Assembly: GCA_964636815.1 (NCBI GenBank)
Contig: CAZWTF010000006.1
Location: 8,461 to 72,460 of the forward strand
Origin: an uncultured Pseudomonadota bacterium
GTDB taxonomy: Bacteria > Babelota > Babeliae > Babelales > Vermiphilaceae
Length of the DNA: 64,000 nucleotides
Direction: 5' to 3'
In this document: positions 10,467-56,750 of the stretch, piece by piece
Layout of the letters: every line of letters starts with the position of its first letter
How positions within the stretch are numbered: position 1 is the first letter of the stretch
The notes under the pieces: generated by a model
What the model saw: only the letters and a program-made list of their open reading frames with translations
Database searches by the model: none
Told to the model about the DNA's origin: nothing
Program-made: the position numbers and the translations under genes

Positions 10467-10498
10467 TCCATCTTTGATTTCTTTTTGATGGGGACCCC
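10467..10498 (-). repeat. Partial copy of dispersed palindromic repeat family 1 (second-hairpin half)
   Basis: The reverse complement GGGGTCCCCATCAAAAAGAAATCAAAGATGGAG aligns with GGGGTCCCCATCGAAAGGAACCGAAGATGGGG at 47507..47538. Confidence 0.55.
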
Positions 10499-10526
10499 GG
10501 CTGGAGCAATGCGGAAGTTTGCGAAA

Positions 10527-22341: not shown

Positions 22342-22380
22342 CCGCTCGTCCTGAGCCCGTCGAAGGATATCTTCGAGTGG
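22342..22380 (+). repeat. Copy of dispersed repeat family 2 (CCGCTCGNCCTGAG...TCGAAGG)
   Basis: CCGCTCGTCCTGAGCCCGTCGAAGGA matches the reverse complement of 38016..38041 (CCGCTCATCCTGAGCTTGTCGAAGGA) and the arms of the palindrome at 56601..56750. Confidence 0.7.
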
Positions 22381-29315: not shown

Positions 29316-29350
29316 CCCCAATATCACTACGTTCTTATTGGGGACCCCAT
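29316..29350 (+). repeat. Copy of dispersed palindromic repeat family 1 (first hairpin plus junction)
   Basis: CCCCAATATCACTACGTTCTTATTGGGGACCCCAT begins right after the stop codon. It is homologous to 37982..38016 and 47482..47517. Confidence 0.7.
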
Positions 29351-29386
29351 TAAAGAAAAGAATACTGAAAATACAGGGAAACGGCG

Positions 29387-35480: not shown

Positions 35481-36620
35481 ATGCAAAAATTATGCACGAT
35501 AATTGTTTTGAATACTATGTTGTTTGTTGCCAATAGTATTGGTATGGAATTACAAGATGTAGGTCAGCCTCGCACAATAAGTAAAGATATCATGCGGGAT
35601 TTTATACGTTCCGATCGTCAAGATAATGCCCAGAAATTTATAACGGAACATCCTCATATAGTAAGTGCATGGGTTGATTGTTGTAACTCTTTAGACCACT
35701 CTTATGACGACTCCTATTCAGTATTACATTGCCTAGTAGAGTATGATGAAGTTTCTCTAGTAAAAGCTTTGTTGGCAGAGGGAGCAAATAAGCATATTAA
35801 TAAATGGACTGGAAGGAAATGGCTCACCCCACTGCATATGGTACAGAGTAAAGAGATGGCAGAATTGTTGTTAGATCATGGTGCAGATTTAGACGCAAAA
35901 GATAAAGACGGAGTAACGCCATTAGGCCATGCGCTGTTTTATCGAGGAATTTGCGATTTTTATTCGAGATGTTTTCTTCCGGTTGTGACGTGCAGTGAAC
36001 AAGATAATGAGCTGAGACGCTATTTATTAGAACGAGGAGCGAATAGTAAAGCAGTTGATAATAAGGGAAACAGTTTATTGCATAGAGTAGCTTTAGGAGA
36101 TGTTTTTTATCCTCCACGTCATTATCCCGAGTTTATTACTTTGCTTATGGAGTTTGGAGCTGACATAGAGATGAAAGATAGTGATGGAAGAACACCATAC
36201 GATTGTGCTATAGCGCAAGGAAGCTATGCTCAGGGGATATTAAAAGCTTTAGAAGAATACAATATTTTTTTTGTGAGTGATCAATTGCCGAGAAACATAT
36301 GTTGGAGAAAGAAGATAAGTTGGAGAGATGAGATTGGAGAATATCAGAATTGTAGGGCTAAGAATCTTTTAGAGTTATTGCAGAATGATGCAGCAGAATT
36401 TAAAAGATGCATACGCAATCGTCCTGATTCATGTGGGATAGTTTTCATAAAAGGTGTATTAACAGATGTATTGAAAATGGCGCGTAAGAATAAATATCGT
36501 GGCGAGATTAAATATTATGAATTGAGAGGATATTTATTTAATAAAGTAAATATGGCTGACCTAGAAGAATGGTGTGGTAAAGATTCAGTAGATTATCTTT
36601 GTCAGTATTTAAAAATATAG
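35481..36620 (+). CDS. Ankyrin-repeat protein, tandem paralog B
   Basis: MQKLCTIIVLNTMLFVA signal peptide. Collinear with paralog A, including the C-terminal ...GYLFNKVN(I/M)ADLEEWCGKDSVDYLC(E/Q)Y(F/L)KI. Confidence 0.8.
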   Translation: MQKLCTIIVLNTMLFVANSIGMELQDVGQPRTISKDIMRDFIRSDRQDNAQKFITEHPHIVSAWVDCCNSLDHSYDDSYSVLHCLVEYDEVSLVKALLAEGANKHINKWTGRKWLTPLHMVQSKEMAELLLDHGADLDAKDKDGVTPLGHALFYRGICDFYSRCFLPVVTCSEQDNELRRYLLERGANSKAVDNKGNSLLHRVALGDVFYPPRHYPEFITLLMEFGADIEMKDSDGRTPYDCAIAQGSYAQGILKALEEYNIFFVSDQLPRNICWRKKISWRDEIGEYQNCRAKNLLELLQNDAAEFKRCIRNRPDSCGIVFIKGVLTDVLKMARKNKYRGEIKYYELRGYLFNKVNMADLEEWCGKDSVDYLCQYLKI

Positions 36621-36642
36621 AGATTTTTTTTATAGCGTACGT

Positions 36643-36674
36643 AAAGAGGTACCAAGACATTGGTACCTCTTTTA
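36643..36674. terminator. Bidirectional terminator (duplicated copy of the 35349 hairpin)
   Basis: AAAGAGGTACC-aagacatt-GGTACCTCTTT between convergent genes. Confidence 0.75.
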
Positions 36675-37307
36675 TTATTTAAGTTTAATTTCAATTCTTT
36701 CAATTGATTTGCCAGGGCGATCGCGTTTGAGAGTTACATAACCAACTTCTGTAGTTGAGTTAACATGTGTTCCTCCGCAAGGCACTTGCGCAAACCCTTC
36801 AATTTTCCAATAACGGCGTTGATTGATGATGTCAGAATATCCACGTTCAATTGGGTAATTGCGATCAATGATGGCATTATATTCTTGTAATATTTTAGGC
36901 AACAGTGTTGAAATGTTGGCGTCTGATTTAAAATCAATGCGTGCTTTATGTTCAGCAATGTGCGCACCAACTTTTTCAAGATGATAGTTCTGAGTAACAA
37001 TTTCTAAAATCAGTTCTGCTGCAAAATGTAAGCGCATAAGTCTATGCCGCCGAGACCAATCAATTGTCATGGTAACGGCGATTCCTGCTTGGAGGCAATG
37101 ATTATCAGGAAGCGTGTAGAAAATAAGAGAGCCAACCGTTTTTGAGCCTAGAATTGGCATATCATTAATCCATGCTGTATCACTTTCTTGTCCGCCAGCA
37201 AAAGAGTAGGCGATTGTTGCATCAAATAGCACGGTATTGCCATCAACAGAAGTTACGGTAGTGTGCAGGGTTGTTTGGTAGGGGTTTTCCCAGAAGACTT
37301 TTCTCAT
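36675..37307 (-). CDS. AlaX-type tRNA editing protein (Thr/Ala-tRNA synthetase second additional domain)
   Basis: His-rich metal site around RRHRLMRLHFAAELI and the CGGTHV motif (VPCGGTHVNSTTEVG). Start taken at MRKVFWENPYQ. Confidence 0.65.
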   Translation of the reverse strand: MRKVFWENPYQTTLHTTVTSVDGNTVLFDATIAYSFAGGQESDTAWINDMPILGSKTVGSLIFYTLPDNHCLQAGIAVTMTIDWSRRHRLMRLHFAAELILEIVTQNYHLEKVGAHIAEHKARIDFKSDANISTLLPKILQEYNAIIDRNYPIERGYSDIINQRRYWKIEGFAQVPCGGTHVNSTTEVGYVTLKRDRPGKSIERIEIKLK

Positions 37308-37378
37308 AACTATTCTCGGTATAATAAAAAAAGGCACCAATTTCTTGGTACCTTTTTAAATTTTTTTAAAACAAGCTC

Positions 37379-37651
37379 TTACGCAGTTTTTGAAGCAGCT
37401 GCAACTTTTTGAGCTAACTTGCTGATTTTGCGAGCAGCGGTATTGCGGTGTAATAAACCTTTACCTTTTGCGCGAGCAATTTTGCTTTCAGCTTCAACTA
37501 GCAATGTTTTTGATGCTGCAATGTTACCAGCTTCAATAGCCGCAACAACTTTTTTCATAGCAGTTTTGAGAGAAGATTTTCTTGCTTGGTTGCGTGCTTG
37601 ACGTTTTACCGTTTGTAAAACGCGTTTTTTTGCAGATTTAATATTTGCCAT
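37379..37651 (-). CDS. rpsT: 30S ribosomal protein S20
   Basis: MANIKSAKKRVLQTVKRQARNQ... is a basic helical 90 aa protein. Confidence 0.9.
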   Translation of the reverse strand: MANIKSAKKRVLQTVKRQARNQARKSSLKTAMKKVVAAIEAGNIAASKTLLVEAESKIARAKGKGLLHRNTAARKISKLAQKVAAASKTA

Positions 37652-37676
37652 AGTACATTTGACCTTGACTTAAATT

Positions 37677-37880
37677 TTAGAGAACTTTTTTAACTTTGCC
37701 TGATTTGAGGCATTTTGTACATACTTTTGAACGATGAACGTGATTTTTTGCATCACCAGTTACGGTATAGCGCATTGTATGCACGTTTGGATAGACCCAA
37801 CGTTTTACTTTGTTGTTAGCGTTACTGACCAAATTTGCTACTTGTGGGCCCTTTGAGCACACTGCACAGATTCTTGACAT
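37677..37880 (-). CDS. rpmB: 50S ribosomal protein L28
   Basis: [33 protein letters not shown] parallels the L28 N-terminus MSRVCQVTGKRP..GNN.SHA.N.TKR.F.PN. Confidence 0.85.
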
Positions 37881-37952
37881 GATGAATACCTTCTTTAAAG
37901 CCTATTTATTTACTTTTTAACATATCAAAAAGAGAAAAAATTACAAGTATTA

Positions 37953-38073
37953 CCCCAATTTCTACTATGTTTTAACATTGTCCCAATTTTCACTTCGTTC
38001 TAATTGGGGTCCCCATTGCTCCTTCGACAAGCTCAGGATGAGCGGTCTGAAAGTGGGGTTAGAAAATATTGGG
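37953..38073 (+). repeat. Composite nested element: family 1 palindromic repeat carrying a family 2 repeat inside its second hairpin
   Basis: CCCAATTTTCACTTCGTTCTAATTGGGGTCCCCAT (family 1), then TGCTCCTTCGACAAGCTCAGGATGAGCGG (family 2, reverse orientation), then TCTGAAAGTGGGG closing the hairpin. The outer ends CCCCAATTTCTA / TAGAAAATATTGGG are inverted. The element abuts the ftsH stop. Confidence 0.7.
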
Positions 38074-39906
38074 TTAAATTAACTTGTGTGCCTGTCTTGG
38101 TTCAATGCCTAATAAAGCATAGATTTCATCGGCATGCATAGTCTCTTTTTCTATCAACGCATTGGCTAAAGCATCAAGCTTATCACGGTTGTTTTCAAGC
38201 AATGTACGTGTTTGCTCGTGATAAAGCTTTGTTAAGCGTTGTACCTCTGCATCGATCTTTTCAGCGGTTTTTTGTGAATATTCAAAATCTCCATGTTGCT
38301 GACTATAAATGATAGTGCCTAATTCCGAAGACATACCATAATGACAGACCATGTTGCGCGTTAAGCGGTTTGCTGTTTGGAAATCGCTATATGCGCCAGT
38401 TGTGAGCTTATTGAATGTTATTTCTTCTGCCACGCGGCCACCAAGTGCCGACATCACTGATGCTTCCATTTCTTCCTTGCTCGTGATGTATTTTTCACGT
38501 TCAGGCAAGAAGTGTGTTACACCAAGCGCTGATCCACGAGGGATAATGGTTACTTTGTGGAGAGGGTCAGATGTTTCTGGTAATAAGAGGCGGACGAGCG
38601 CATGACCAGCTTCATGATACGCGATGAGCTTCTTATCTTCATCGGTGAGCATGATGCTTTTGCTTTCTTTACCAAGCATTACTTTGTCTCTTGCGGCATC
38701 AAAATCATGGATAGTTACGGTATCTTTATTTTCTTTTGACGCGATAATTGTAGCCTCGTTAACCAAGTTGGCAAGATCTGCACCAGAGAACCCTGGAGTT
38801 CCTTGAGCTATTTTTTTGATATCAAGATCATCTTCAGCCATTACATTTTTAACGTGTACGCCTAAAATAGCTTCGCGGCTTTTTAAATCAGGATAAGGAA
38901 CAGTGACACGACGATCAAAGCGTCCTGGACGTAAGAGCGCTTTATCCAAAACGTCAACTCTATTTGTTGCTGCAATAACAATGACAGGAGTTGGAGACGT
39001 TTCAAAACCATCCATCTCAGCAAGGAGTTGGTTGAGTGTTTGTTCACGTTCATCATTACCACCACCCATGCCACTGCCACGGTGACGGCCAACAGCATCG
39101 ATTTCATCAATAAAAATGATACTTGGAGCATGTTTGCGTGCTTGTGCAAAAAGATCACGAACACGAGCAGCACCAACACCAACAAATACTTCAATAAAGT
39201 TTGAACCACTGATGCTAAAGAATGGGCAGTTAGCTTCACCAGCAACGGCGCGTGCTAATAATGTTTTACCGTTTCCTGGTTCACCAATAAGTAATACCCC
39301 GCGAGTAATTTTTGCACCAAGACGTTGGTATTTTTGAGGGTTTTTAAGAAAATCGATAACATCTGCAAGTTCTTCTTTTGCTTCATCTGCACCAGCCACT
39401 GAGTTAAAGCTTTCTTTGATGCTTGATGGTAAGAACATACGAGCTCCACTTTTGCCCATAGTAAAAATGTTGCCTCCACCGCCATTGGCACCAGCGCTGC
39501 GAGAGCGAATAAAATACCAAATAGCCCAGATGGCAACAAATAAACAAGAAAAAAGGAATAAATACCAGATGCCAAGTTGATTGGTTGGTGAGATTACTGA
39601 GAATTCTACACCATGTCTACGTAAACGATCCCAATCATTCGCGTTGTTGCCCATAACTGTTTCAAAACGATTGCCGTCGGTAAAGATACCTTCAACGTCT
39701 TGTCCTGAAATATATACTTTTTTAACAAGGTCTTGGTCTATTTTTTCCAAGAATGTTGAATATGAGATAGTTTGAACATTTCTACCCAGTTCAGTTAGTT
39801 TGTGAAGTACTAAAAGTACTCCTGCAAGAATAATAAAGGTAACAATGGCATTTTTTATGTTTTTAGGACTTGGAGACCAGAAATTACTGTTTTTAGGTTT
39901 TTTCAT
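38074..39906 (-). CDS. ftsH: ATP-dependent zinc metalloprotease FtsH
   Basis: Two N-terminal TM helices, Walker A GEPGNGKT, Walker B IIFIDEID, and zinc site HEAGHA. Confidence 0.95.
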
Positions 39907-39995
39907 ACAAATTCATCTACTTTTTGAGGTTTATGCTTAAAAATACTTGTTCTACTGTAGCATAGTTTATGATTTTTGTCGATTGCTTAAATTAC

Positions 39996-41276
39996 CTAAC
40001 TCACTATCGGAAACGTTTGATATGTTGGCCCCCAATGAGGGTAGCTGCATGTATCATGCGCATGAGTTATATATTTTGTTTTATTAGTCAGCAGATTTAG
40101 AGTGCAGAGCTGGCTTTGTTTGCCTGGAACTTCATGCGCAAACAGTAGCTGTGTTCCGCACGGTGACCAACTTGCTTCGTGTTTGCTACCAGGTGTTGTT
40201 GTCAGTTGAGTGTGTGTTTTAGCGGTGCAATCATATACCATCAGCTGCATCGTGCCACTTATCATTTTGTGGTAAGAAATCTTATGAGTTTTTGGACAAT
40301 AGCTGGGAGTTGTGCAATAGCCACCATGAGTGATGCGTTGAAGATGCCCTGTTTGCAGATTGCCGATATAAATTTGCGGATTACCTTTTTGAAAATCGGA
40401 ACAGAAGCAAAGATGGTGTTCATCGATAAAAATAGGGGAAGTATTATTCCCACTGTTTTGGGTGCATCTTTTTAAATTGTCATTCTCAACAAGGTAAATC
40501 TGGCAACTGCCACTGCCGCGTGAAGAGCAGTAAGAGAATGATTTTCCGTTAGGGGAGTATGAAGCAAGCATATTAATGCCATCAAAGTTAGCAACAGGTT
40601 TTCTTTTTTTATTCATGGTAACCGACATCAATTCAACATTGGTATTGGCATATTCTGAATATAAAATACGTGGTTCTGTGTTGTGCCAACGTGGTGCAAT
40701 GGCAATGGTAGGAAGATCAACAAGGAGTTCTTCATTGCTGCCATCAAAATCTGCCACATAAATTTTGCGTATTGTTTGGCCTTTACTGTTTTTTGAATCT
40801 TTGCAATAGGCTATGCGTGAACTGAAAAACCCCTCGTTGCCGGTTAGTTTTTGGAATGTTTCATCTGCAATTGCATGTGCCCATTCACGTGTAAGAGCAC
40901 TTTTTTTACTGTGTTTTTTTCCACAGATCATAGTGCATTGCATGGTGTCATACAATCGCCATGTGATACTATTTTTTGATTCGCTGCTAATGCACAAGGC
41001 AAGCGGTGTTCCTTGGTTGCATAATTGTTGTATGTTTTTTTTGATAACTTTATTTGATACAGTAGCATCGCATTTTTTGATAGTTGGCTTAAATTGATCG
41101 GTAAATTGTAAATCTTTTTTGATGACCGCTGCGATATCATTCAGTTCACTATTTTTTTCATCAAGAATTATGATCGCAATCGGCATTTGTGTTTGTTGTG
41201 CGCCAGAAATGGTTAACGCAATATCATTTGCGCGTGTGCATAATGTGGTGAATATAAGGAGGAATAATTTTTTCAT
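39996..41276 (-). CDS. tolB: Tol-Pal system beta-propeller protein TolB
   Basis: Signal peptide from MKKLFLLIF. Repeated propeller blades with SP(N/C)G motifs (YSPNGKSFSY, WSPCGTQLLF). Sits downstream of tolQRA. Confidence 0.75.
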   Translation of the reverse strand: MKKLFLLIFTTLCTRANDIALTISGAQQTQMPIAIIILDEKNSELNDIAAVIKKDLQFTDQFKPTIKKCDATVSNKVIKKNIQQLCNQGTPLALCISSESKNSITWRLYDTMQCTMICGKKHSKKSALTREWAHAIADETFQKLTGNEGFFSSRIAYCKDSKNSKGQTIRKIYVADFDGSNEELLVDLPTIAIAPRWHNTEPRILYSEYANTNVELMSVTMNKKRKPVANFDGINMLASYSPNGKSFSYCSSRGSGSCQIYLVENDNLKRCTQNSGNNTSPIFIDEHHLCFCSDFQKGNPQIYIGNLQTGHLQRITHGGYCTTPSYCPKTHKISYHKMISGTMQLMVYDCTAKTHTQLTTTPGSKHEASWSPCGTQLLFAHEVPGKQSQLCTLNLLTNKTKYITHAHDTCSYPHWGPTYQTFPIVS

Positions 41277-46532: not shown

Positions 46533-47645
46533 ATGAAAAAAATGAAGGTTGCGGTTCTTGTTTCTGGTGGTGTTGATAGCTCTGTTGCGCTTCAACTGCT
46601 TAAAAACCAGGGTCATGATGTAACTGCTTTTTATCTTAAAATTTGGTTAGAAGATGAGCTTTCTTATTTGGGCGATTGTCCATGGGAAAATGATCTTTCT
46701 TTTGTAAAACAGGTGTGTGATCAGCTGGAAGTACCGCTTGAAGTGGTCTCTTTGCAAAAAGAGTATAAAGATGAAGTGGTTGCATACACTGTTGCGGCTG
46801 TTAAGGCAGGCCGTACACCAAATCCTGATATTTTATGTAATCAACGCATTAAATTTGGTCTTTTTTTAGATAAAATTGATTCCAGTTTTGAAAAAGTAGC
46901 ATCTGGGCATTACGCGCAAAGCCGTGAAAAAGATGGCATTGTTGAACTAGTTCAATCGCCAGACCCCATCAAAGACCAAACCTATTTTCTCTCTCATTTA
47001 AGTCAACAGCAGCTACAACGTGTGCTGTTTCCTATTGGCCATCTTCAAAAAAGTGAAGTTCGTGCATTAGCCCATGAGTTTAATTTGCCCAATAAAGATC
47101 GCAAAGATAGCCAGGGGATCTGCTTTTTAGGTAAATTTAAGTTTAGTGATTTTATCAAGCATCACCTTGGTACGCAAACAGGACAGATGATAGAGATTGA
47201 AACTGGTAAAAGTATGGGAGCGCATAACGGGTTCTGGTTTTATACCATTGGTCAGCGGCAGGGTCTTGGCCTTGGTGGTGGGCCGTGGTATGTGGTTGCT
47301 AAAGATATTGATAAAAATATCGTTTTCATTTCCCGTAATTATTATGATGATGAAAAACAACGTAACAAATTTACTGTTGAAAAGATTCATTGGTTAACAG
47401 ATGGATTATATCCCAATAAAAACAGCCTTGAAGTTAAATTGCGACATGGAGCACAACGTTATCAATGCACAATCCTTGATTCCCCAATTTTTACTTCGTT
47501 CCAATTGGGGTCCCCATCGAAAGGAACCGAAGATGGGGTTAAAGTAGTAATACTTTCTGGTCGTGATCAGGGTATTGCGCCTGGGCAGTATGCGGTGTTT
47601 TATGATGGTGATGTATGTGTAGGTAGTGCGGTTATAACACAGTAA
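46533..47645 (+). CDS. mnmA: tRNA-specific 2-thiouridylase MnmA (carries an in-frame repeat insertion)
   Basis: PP-loop VLVSGGVDSSVA, NPDILCN, SQGICFLG, and C-terminal APGQYAVFYDGDVCVG. Confidence 0.9.
   Translation: MKKMKVAVLVSGGVDSSVALQLLKNQGHDVTAFYLKIWLEDELSYLGDCPWENDLSFVKQVCDQLEVPLEVVSLQKEYKDEVVAYTVAAVKAGRTPNPDILCNQRIKFGLFLDKIDSSFEKVASGHYAQSREKDGIVELVQSPDPIKDQTYFLSHLSQQQLQRVLFPIGHLQKSEVRALAHEFNLPNKDRKDSQGICFLGKFKFSDFIKHHLGTQTGQMIEIETGKSMGAHNGFWFYTIGQRQGLGLGGGPWYVVAKDIDKNIVFISRNYYDDEKQRNKFTVEKIHWLTDGLYPNKNSLEVKLRHGAQRYQCTILDSPIFTSFQLGSPSKGTEDGVKVVILSGRDQGIAPGQYAVFYDGDVCVGSAVITQ
47482..47540 (+). repeat. Full copy of palindromic repeat family 1, located inside the mnmA reading frame
   Basis: CCCCAATTTTTACTTCGTTCCAATTGGGG-T-CCCCATCGAAAGGAACCGAAGATGGGGTT forms two adjacent hairpins. 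It is homologous to the intergenic copies at 29316, 37982 and 10467. Confidence 0.75.
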
Positions 47646-56600: not shown

Positions 56601-56750
56601 CCGCTCGCCCTGAGTGTTCTACGAAGTATAACGTAGTAGAATGTATCGAAGGGTGCGATATAAAAAAGACTTGTGTTTGTTATCTTTCCGCTTAACCCTT
56701 CGATACATTTTTGCTTTGCTAAAGCTACGAAAAACACTCAGGGCGAGCGG
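56601..56750. repeat. 150-bp palindromic element built from two inverted family 2 repeat units
   Basis: Perfect 18-bp terminal inverted repeats CCGCTCGCCCTGAGTGTT / AACACTCAGGGCGAGCGG. A second perfect inverted block ATGTATCGAAGGGT / ACCCTTCGATACAT lies inside. Confidence 0.8.

Follow-up and report, generated by a model that had tools for sequence, protein, structure and literature searches.

What is the 121-nt structured sequence at positions 37953-38073, between ftsH and rpmB, and how did it come to be there? The locus lies in the genome of a member of the Dependentiae (G000; 1.08 Mb, 36% G+C, 16 contigs, 98% complete), assembled from a metagenome. The window is a stretch of 64,000 nucleotides of contig C6 (C6:8461-72460), and a position in the window equals the C6 position minus 8460. 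The original prediction, made from the window alone, described a small palindromic repeat (family 1) with a second one (family 2) inserted in it, and suggested that the whole may terminate ftsH transcription. Here we describe the anatomy of this composite, compare the site with that of the closest relative (G006, a closed genome of 1.37 Mb) and other congeners, and weigh how it was built. The composite is probably made of miniature selfish repeats of the REP/SDR/RPE kind, non-coding and hairpin-forming, that are nested at three levels, and is not a purpose-built regulatory site.

The genes around the site are read from the minus strand in the order ftsH, rpmB, rpsT (Table 1). The synteny of ftsH and rpmB is kept throughout the genus and in much of the family. 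The spacer between the two genes measures 193 nt and contains the composite. Directly downstream of the insertion point is a promoter-like block, which is conserved in all ten aligned spacers of the genus and scores under the 9/12 threshold of the promoter scan. We infer from its sequence that it is a putative rpmB promoter.

Table 1. Features of the composite, its surroundings and other repeat copies in the window (positions are those of the window).
Feature	Position	Strand	Sequence or evidence
Canonical intrinsic terminator after rpsT	37328-37357	-	terminator scan: 13-bp stem + T-run
rpsT	37379-37651	-	Pfam PF01649
rpmB (ribosomal protein L28), downstream of the composite	37677-37880	-	Pfam PF00830, E 1.2e-13
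Promoter-like block for rpmB	37919-37946	-	TTGTAA (37941-37946), 16-nt spacer, TGnTATGTT (-10-like, 37919-37924)
Extra partial family 1 left arm, 5' half of outer stem	37952-37964	+	ACCCCAATTTCTA; repeat analysis, MFE fold
Small palindrome, third branch of junction (mini-hairpin)	37967-37978	+	ATGTTTTAACAT; fold
Family 1 hairpin 1 (hp1)	37982-38009	+	CCCAAT-15 nt-AATTGGGG; nhmmer, fold z -3.0
Junction T between hp1 and hp2	38010		
Family 1 hairpin 2 (hp2), loop filled by family 2 unit	38011-38058	+	CCCCATTGC..TCTGAAAGTGGGG
Family 2 unit in hp2 loop	38020-38045	+	TCCTTCGACAAGCTCAGGATGAGCGG; stem TCCT/AGGA, 11-nt loop TCGACAAGCTC, right arm TGAGCGG
Far arm, 3' half of outer stem	38060-38073	+	TAGAAAATATTGGG; adjoins complement of ftsH stop codon
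ftsH stop codon	38074-38076	-	
ftsH (AAA+ / M41 protease)	38074-39906	-	Pfam PF01434 2.8e-61, PF00004 1.2e-44
Solo family 2 unit	22343-22379	-	
Full family 1 copy inside mnmA, reference for the uninterrupted element	47483-47538	+	nhmmer E 4.7e-18; absent from G006
Inverted pair of family 2 units	56601-56750	.	CCGCTCGCCCTGAG[..]TGTATCGAAGGG and CCCTTCGATACA[..]CACTCAGGGCGAGCGG, read from sequence

The anatomy of the composite as first described, a double hairpin with a family 2 unit in one loop, was confirmed by its sequence and its fold. Hairpin 1 is matched by nhmmer over model positions 1-37 (C6:46442-46478, E 3e-8), and hairpin 2 folds as a single extended hairpin (dG -19.6, z -2.9). The family 2 unit in the loop of hp2 has identical copies elsewhere in the genome (24/24 and 22/22). 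It consists of the 26-nt core and the right arm, not of the whole 39-nt local unit, and the claim of a family 2 unit at this place holds to that extent. Folded alone (127 nt), the composite is predicted to form a four-way junction in which an outer stem surrounds the mini-hairpin, hp1 and the extended hp2 (dG -37 kcal/mol, z -3.62); 0 of 200 shuffles were equally stable. The far arm brings the element exactly to the ftsH stop codon, as had been noted. A cmscan search of Rfam over 36000-40000 at E<=1 gave two weak matches, both outside the composite.

The extra upstream arm had been said to pair with the far end. The outer stem is indeed present in the fold, but it is just 78% complementary, and positions 37952-37960 of the arm could also pair without a mismatch (9/9) with the right arm of hp1 (38002-38010), so that the partner of the arm is ambiguous. 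The arm belongs to a diverged (74%) direct copy, 37949-37975, of the segment 37977-38003. Tandem duplication was considered as its source and is unlikely, because the two 27-nt copies are only 74% alike whereas the spacer flanks of the sister species are ~90% identical.

Both repeat families proved to be dispersed when searched for across the genome. The family 1 profile, built from 11 complete copies (nhmmer E 1e-14 to 6e-19), identifies 37 loci at E<1e-3, with the consensus CCCAAT-15 nt-ATYGGGG-W-CCCCATCGAAAGAAACTGAAGATGGGG. The three other copies named in the original prediction were recovered by nhmmer with slightly different bounds (29316-29359, 47483-47538 and 10468-10518). Family 2 is a 39-nt unit, GCGCTCGAAGATATCCTTCAACAAGTTCAGGACGAGCGC, with 41 loci by profile at the same threshold. 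Seven 74-nt head-to-head doublets of it occur in this genome, all in the (-,+) arrangement, and many more in G006. The inverted pair at 56601-56750 is a second nesting site in the window, each of its family 2 loops being filled by a different small hairpin. By the strict junction pattern ATYGGGGWCCCCATYG, family 1 is essentially genus-level: G000 has 11 matches, G002 10, G005 1, G006 17, G008 18 and G010 3, with 1 further match among 250 other Dependentiae genomes.

Could these similarities be chance resemblance in AT-rich spacer DNA, or an artefact of assembly? Such suspicion has some ground in a metagenome assembly of 36% G+C, and short palindromes are common in spacers. However, the nhmmer E-values reach 6e-19, the repeat elements are G+C-rich islands, and reversed control patterns gave 0 matches in all 261 genomes searched. 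The flanks of the composite are also collinear with 9 other genomes. The E-values, the collinear flanks and the zero-match controls refute this reading, to which we give practically no credence.

The history of the site can be read from the sister species. In 8 congeners the ftsH-rpmB site is empty, with a spacer of 5-7 nt or an unrelated spacer before the promoter-like block; most of them read TAA-ACGTT-CTTGTAAA, followed by that conserved block. An element at the site was found only in G000 (121 nt) and in G006 (~65 nt), whose rpmB genes are 97% identical. Position and orientation of the element agree between the two, and the family 1 insertion therefore predates their split. The G006 copy is a family 1 element that lacks both the family 2 unit and the extra upstream arm. 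Its hp2, CCCCATTGTAATGAAGTGAAAATGGGG, is intact and has the normal 13-nt loop of a known family 1 subtype. Its hp1 has decayed, being ~10 nt shorter with the pairing lost, and a related extra 3' arm (GATGGGG) stands at the place of the far arm. The hp2 loops differ by a replacement, 8 nt in G006 vs 29 nt here.

Since the G006 copy is family 1 without the family 2 unit, the nesting most likely arose in the G000 lineage, a direction read from one sister genome. A gain is further suggested by the low likelihood that a deletion would restore a canonical loop so precisely, and by the absence of the chimera from all ten congeners. Alternatively, the whole composite was inserted once in the ancestor and G006 then lost parts of it by deletion. 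Hairpins are prone to deletion, the G006 copy is degraded (its hp1 shortened and unpaired), and with 8 congeners empty there is no outgroup with the element to set the direction. Such a deletion, however, must have taken out the family 2 unit in such a way that the remaining loop has normal length and matches a known family 1 subtype (CCCCATTG..GAAAATGGGG). The chimera type is moreover found in 0 of 10 congeners, despite the 67 family 1 and 148 family 2 loci of G006. We therefore regard ancestral insertion of the whole as improbable.

The comparison with the sister species shows a stack that was apparently built by successive recent events. A family 1 double hairpin first landed directly after the ftsH stop codon, upstream of the promoter-like block, in the common ancestor of G000 and G006, the 8 other congeners having the empty site. 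In a second step, for which the direction is the inferred part, a 29-nt segment with the family 2 unit of 26 nt would have replaced 8 nt of the hp2 loop. Upstream, an additional family 1 arm would have been gained, closing the element into a four-way junction.

The product of the second step is not confined to this locus. The chimera of hp2 and family 2, with the junctions CCCAT-NNN-TCCTTCGACAAGCTCAGGATGAG-GGTCTGAA-RTGGGG, has two strict copies in this genome, in the composite and at C5:31047-31093, and none in 10 congeners. A third, degenerate copy lies at C7:32912, and all three loci are absent from G006. Once formed, the chimera may have spread, or been copied by conversion, to one or two more loci. 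The family 2 parts of the two strict copies are identical at 26/27 positions, whereas the surrounding family 1 parts are ~75-80% identical. This inequality is compatible with two separate insertions at one loop position and also with short-tract conversion.

Nesting of the two families usually runs the other way. In G006, 24 of the 35 full family 1 copies are followed directly by TTAA-ACARGCTCAGGRCGAGCGC or -CGAACGG, the right half of family 2, and 16 of these 24 also have the left family 2 half (..ATCCTT-TTGC) in front. Seven of the 14 full copies in G000 are likewise followed by the right half. Within the 11-nt family 2 loop the position of family 1 is fixed and its relative orientation is always the same; the family 2 units that surround it belong to three types or more, with matched inner stems. 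The composite, with family 2 inside family 1, is accordingly the rarer, reciprocal nesting. Six nearly identical family 1-in-family 2 composites in G006 show that these nests also spread as units. Other small hairpins fill family 2 loops in G006, as they do at 56601-56750.

Both families turn over quickly between the two sister species, with empty sites called from pairwise alignments of G000 and G006. At least 16 of ~55 alignable clusters of this genome are cleanly absent from G006, including the mnmA copy. Among the 84 alignable G006 clusters, 37 have no counterpart here and just 10 are conserved. Orthologous sites of the two species sometimes hold different repeats. Dispersal and fast turnover bear out the view that both families are or were mobile. 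The simple picture of one independent element inserted in another is not sustained, as the families are not independent and the change at the locus is an 8-nt by 29-nt replacement.

No target-site duplication was visible at more than 50 pairs of empty and filled sites in G000 and G006, where the boundaries were sometimes fuzzy. Classical transposition is not demonstrated, given the 8-to-29-nt replacement and the lack of target-site duplication at polymorphic sites. It is possible, although we would not call it probable, that the hp2 loop was overwritten by short-tract gene conversion or by template switching during replication. The donor would be a family 1 copy that already carried a family 2 unit, such as C5:31047, unless the transfer ran in the reverse direction, and mosaics would come from exchange between hairpins with similar stems, with no transposition step at the ftsH-rpmB locus. 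The replacement itself speaks for conversion, as do the identical chimera junctions at the second locus, the different repeats often held by orthologous sites, and the lack of target duplications and of a transposase. Conversion cannot, however, make the first chimera, nor can it seed naive sites such as the ftsH stop codon or positions inside mnmA and gpmI. A simple tract would also carry its flanks along, and the flanks of the family 2 unit are ~75-80% identical while the unit itself is identical at 26 of 27 positions.

Under the preferred reading of a nest of selfish repeats, resident hairpin loops may be preferred landing or exchange sites for other hairpin repeats. Such a preference would explain why family 1 has a fixed position and orientation in family 2 loops, why family 2 is found in hp2 here and why still other hairpins occupy family 2 loops. 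The fixed orientation of family 1 in family 2 could also go back to a single origin, the enclosing units having been exchanged later, rather than to repeated loop targeting.

What moves the repeats? No transposase had been seen in the window, and this extends to the whole genome (98% complete) for the families covered: Pfam PF01797, PF01609, PF00665, PF07282 and PF00078 gave no match, searches which take in Y1/RAYT, DDE_Tnp_1, rve, TnpB and RVT_1. The RAYT/IS200-like transposase that the original prediction proposed to look for is thus not among the genes of this genome by PF01797, and G008, with 111 family 2 copies, has no Y1 gene by the same profile. G006 does have Y1 genes, which belong to an ordinary IS200-like element of 570 bp present in three identical copies; the hairpins at its ends have no relation to either family. 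A RAYT was accordingly rejected as the mover here. In closed G006 neither family is biased in replication strand (family 1 22:18, family 2 78:70). Insertion into single strands with a lagging-strand bias was rejected on this ground, and single-strand transposition of the IS200/IS605 type is disfavoured because the expected strand bias is missing. As the genome yielded neither a transposase nor a reverse transcriptase gene in these searches, the likeliest agent may be a host DNA-metabolism function that copies the repeats by acting on extruded hairpins, the loops being the points of entry or exchange.

The distribution of copies was examined on a crude ORF map. About 60-80% of family 2 copies lie in the intergenic 9% of the genome, and ~15-20% of copies lie deep inside ORFs, some of which are perhaps spurious. 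Several of the latter are in-frame additions; examples are the 56 nt plus flanks in mnmA (absent in G006), a gpmI-like gene with 24 added nt and a mnmG-like copy. Copies are spread over tandem, convergent and divergent spacers in proportion to spacer length, and on the same crude map neither family has an orientation bias relative to transcription. The genome-wide survey that had been proposed therefore yielded copies and a consensus, and neither target duplication nor orientation bias. Because of the proportional spread and the missing orientation bias, the pattern is that of selfish DNA filtered by selection, and not that of a regulatory signal.

This pattern bears on the suggestion that the composite is the ftsH terminator. 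When 37300-38400 was scanned for terminators, nothing terminator-like was called at the composite, while a canonical terminator was located behind rpsT, likely the real end of the ftsH-rpmB-rpsT transcription unit. The T-rich run near the composite starts ~12 nt after the outer stem, the terminator criterion being 0-2 nt. With no match to the consensus and the element absent from 8 congeners, the suggestion fails. In a wider form, the composite would be a functional RNA, kept to end ftsH transcription, to shield the 3' end from exonucleases or to insulate rpmB expression against read-through from ftsH. It does lie precisely between the stop codon of ftsH and the promoter-like block of rpmB, as RNA its sense strand has a strong predicted fold (dG -37 kcal/mol, z -3.6), and a T-rich run does follow. 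REPs elsewhere are reported to stabilise upstream mRNA (PMC3733652). Yet 8 congeners do without the element, having a spacer of 5-7 nt or an unrelated one, and in G006 the copy has partly decayed and the spacer folds no better than shuffles (z 0.2). Neither family is orientation-biased or enriched in 3' spacers across the genome. A functional RNA of this kind is quite unlikely in our view. A dedicated terminator or 3'-UTR function was rejected in the absence of orientation bias, spacer-type bias and terminator consensus. For the two genes the composite probably has no consequence beyond giving the ftsH message a structured 3' tail; a stabilising 3' structure on the ftsH mRNA is possible.

Family 2 extends far beyond this genus. 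To judge from sequence comparison, it is the local version of a hairpin unit of 26-27 nt with a variable 4-5-bp stem, a conserved, invariant 11-nt loop TCGACARGCTC and a CGAACGG/GAGCGG arm. The subtypes of family 2 differ by compensatory changes: inner stems are TCCT:AGGA, CCCT:AGGG, TTCT:AGAA or TGGT:ACCA, and outer stems GCGCTCG:CGAGCGC or CCGTTCG:CGAACGG. Among 191 high-quality Dependentiae genomes, 60 contain the core, in 1 to 111 copies, and one congener has none. Outside the Dependentiae it was found in at least 119 stretches, against ~0.3 expected by chance in 596 Gb, as well as in at least 120 (pro)viral contigs of IMG/VR. The matches listed include Burkholderiales, Sphingomonadales, Methylococcales, Nitrosomonadales, Moraxella and a deltaproteobacterium, and also Synechococcaceae, Chloroflexota/Dehalococcoidia/SAR202 and Acidobacteriota. 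The core with the right arm is common to Proteobacteria, Chloroflexota, Acidobacteriota, Cyanobacteria and viral contigs. Covariation was tested between the base two positions upstream of the core and the variable base after AGG. Among 134 listed instances in other genomes, 125 form a Watson-Crick pair, vs 76 by shuffling, and none of 2000 shuffles reach 125. This covariation marks the unit as a hairpin whose stem is free to vary while its loop is conserved.

Literature searches with the loop sequence and the translated peptides found no paper describing the family 2 unit, and a search on Dependentiae and palindromic repeats found nothing relevant. When translated, the unit yields peptide artefacts such as FDKLRANG and RPELVEG. 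CsrA-type proteins recognise sites with GGA in a hairpin loop, and such a site was considered for family 2. It was rejected, as the alternative hairpin GCTCA-GGA-TGAGC is formed by some variants only and the common variant elsewhere has AGGGC.

There is also a bolder idea, which we regard as doubtful. The family 2 unit would be a self-propagating hairpin without an enzyme of its own. It would be copied by a universal host DNA replication or repair activity that recognises its loop, land by preference in the single-stranded loops of other extruded hairpins and be carried by phages between phyla.

How does the nest relate to known systems? Its behaviour matches that of REP/REPIN/BIME-type and SDR-type repeats. 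SDR1-8 of Nostoc and Anabaena are reportedly hairpin-forming units of 21-27 nt, nested in other repeats, which Elhai et al. 2008 are said to have judged mobile from presence and absence between relatives, with no recognised transposase. Tiny hairpin units, nesting in other repeats, mobility seen as presence or absence and the lack of a recognised transposase are all shared with the present families. To our knowledge, SDRs are described in cyanobacteria only, and neither reciprocal nesting of two families nor a core shared across phyla has been reported for them.

RPEs are palindromic repeats of 100-150 bp in the obligate intracellular Rickettsia, with no transposase known. The small genome of an obligate intracellular host, the lack of a transposase and the in-frame insertions tolerated in essential genes (here mnmA and the gpmI-like and mnmG-like genes) are common to both. 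The RPEs differ in their length (26-57 nt here), in their restriction to Rickettsia and in their unrelated sequences, and nesting is not an RPE hallmark. MITEs, such as the Correia elements of Neisseria, and the pneumococcal BOX are non-autonomous, structured elements that lie in transcribed spacers and are able to alter mRNA ends. The repeats described here are likewise non-autonomous and structured, and BOX is modular. In contrast, they have no target-site duplication and no parent IS was found, which removes the likeness to MITEs, and their units are two to five times smaller.

From the original comparison with MITE, REP and RPE elements the REP size, the doublets and the RPE-like in-frame insertion are retained, while the REP tag, the RAYT and the duplication and parent IS of MITEs are wanting. 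REP/REPIN and BIMEs of Proteobacteria include superfamilies of REPs tagged with GTAG and CGTC (Bertels and Rainey 2011, PMC3116915; Di Nocera et al. 2013, PMC3733652). REPs are imperfect palindromes of 20-40 nt in tens to hundreds of copies; family 2 has a unit of 39 nt and 41 loci. They occur as singletons and as head-to-head inverted doublets, like the seven 74-nt doublets here, are mostly extragenic with some within genes, and form mosaics with other motifs, as BIMEs do. In Anabaena variabilis, Halothiobacillus neapolitanus and Thermomicrobium roseum, REP dimers lie within other palindromes, and a transposase dedicated to CGTC REPs is stated to be lacking (both Di Nocera et al. 2013, PMC3733652).

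The differences lie in the tag and the stem. An unpaired GTAG or CGTC tag is lacking: family 2 begins with GCGCTCG or CCGTTCG, which is paired with the other end, and it has no GTAG, CGTC occurring only within the paired part of some variants. According to the same paper (PMC3733652), CGTC REPs have 8-9-bp stems that start with AT pairs, 4-5-nt loops and a CCA tail, whereas the inner stem here is 4-5 bp with an 11-nt loop. Family 2 also differs from CGTC-REP families 1-4 in having no CCA tail. Finally, there is no RAYT in this genome or in G008, and the core of family 2 is shared across phyla instead of being species-specific.

For annotation, the family 1 and family 2 units should be recognised because they seed spurious ORFs and in-frame insertions. 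Selfish DNA would be expected to disappear from the minimal genomes of obligate symbionts; this genome holds ~80 copies of two interlocking hairpin repeats, which turn over faster than its genes diverge, without a detectable transposase. The ftsH-rpmB locus offers a rare dated series of empty site, single element and nested element, which shows how mosaics form and points to hairpin loops as the places of growth. The locus also links a repeat confined to one genus with a 26-nt hairpin unit whose core and right arm occur in many phyla. If the copying agent were identified, it would address the 40-year-old question of how REP-like repeats spread without an enzyme of their own. A loop-seeking hairpin driven by host enzymes, if true, would be a new class of mobile DNA and would explain the Russian-doll repeats.

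Family 2, a hairpin unit with a 4-5-bp inner stem and a conserved 11-nt loop, ranges across genus g1 from no copies in G001, a genome that is 95% complete, to 111 in G008 (comparison of G001 with G008, G006 and G004). The double-hairpin family 1 was found in only 6 of the 11 species.

Contigs from many bacterial phyla contain the 23-nt family 2 core, CTTCGACARGCTCAGGRYGARCG (L100-L218 among the matches listed), and so do at least 120 (pro)viral contigs of IMG/VR (L221-L300). These matches usually take the form of inverted pairs with the closing arms CCGTTCG/CGAACGG. A 27-mer, ATCCTTCGACAAGCTCAGGATGAGCGG, is identical between one Dehalococcoidia contig (L159) and one Acidobacteriota contig (L173), and the C5 chimera of G000, a family 1 hairpin with a family 2 unit in its loop, differs from it by a single base.

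A second nesting site of the window is an inverted family 2 pair, and the hairpins that split its two loops differ (TTCTACG..CGTAGTAGAA versus GCTTTGCTAAAGC). In the sister genome G006, small hairpins of a third family, such as CCGAAGCCTTTGGCGAAGG and TCCGACGAAGCCTTGGCGAAGTCGGA, are nested within loops of family 2.

G006 also carries an IS200-like element of 570 bp, whose three copies are identical. It encodes a Y1 transposase of 142 aa and has the end hairpins CCCTGGCTTTTCAAAGCCAGGG and GGGGGCTTTTAAGCCCCC. This element is absent from G000; remnants with stop codons are present in G009 and G003.

The terminator of rpsT has a stem of the AAAGGTACC type, as in the stem originally noticed after the ankyrin genes.

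Coordinates of repeats, the IS200-like element and a terminator
Feature	Location	Strand	Detail
IS200-like copy (L049)	G006 C1:369177-369746		
IS200-like copy (L059)	G006 C1:574537-575106		
IS200-like copy (L089)	G006 C1:about 1166464-1167033		
Intrinsic terminator	window 37328-37357	-	textbook form; directly 3' of rpsT; 13-bp stem and T-run
Inverted family 2 pair	window 56601-56750		both 11-nt loops split by a small hairpin
Third-family nest	G006 C1:904508-904650		in family 2 loop
Third-family nest	G006 C1:1175409-1175512		in family 2 loop
Third-family nest	G006 C1:1353605-1353656		in family 2 loop
In-frame repeat	G000 C2:167660-167704		ORF outside window
In-frame repeat	G000 C3:2368-2393		ORF outside window
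In-frame repeat	G000 C2:126758-126787		ORF outside window

Repeat units also lie in frame within three ORFs of G000. Read off their translated flanks, these ORFs look like phosphoglycerate mutase, MnmG and photolyase, in the order tabulated. At the first two sites the G006 segment is shorter or different.
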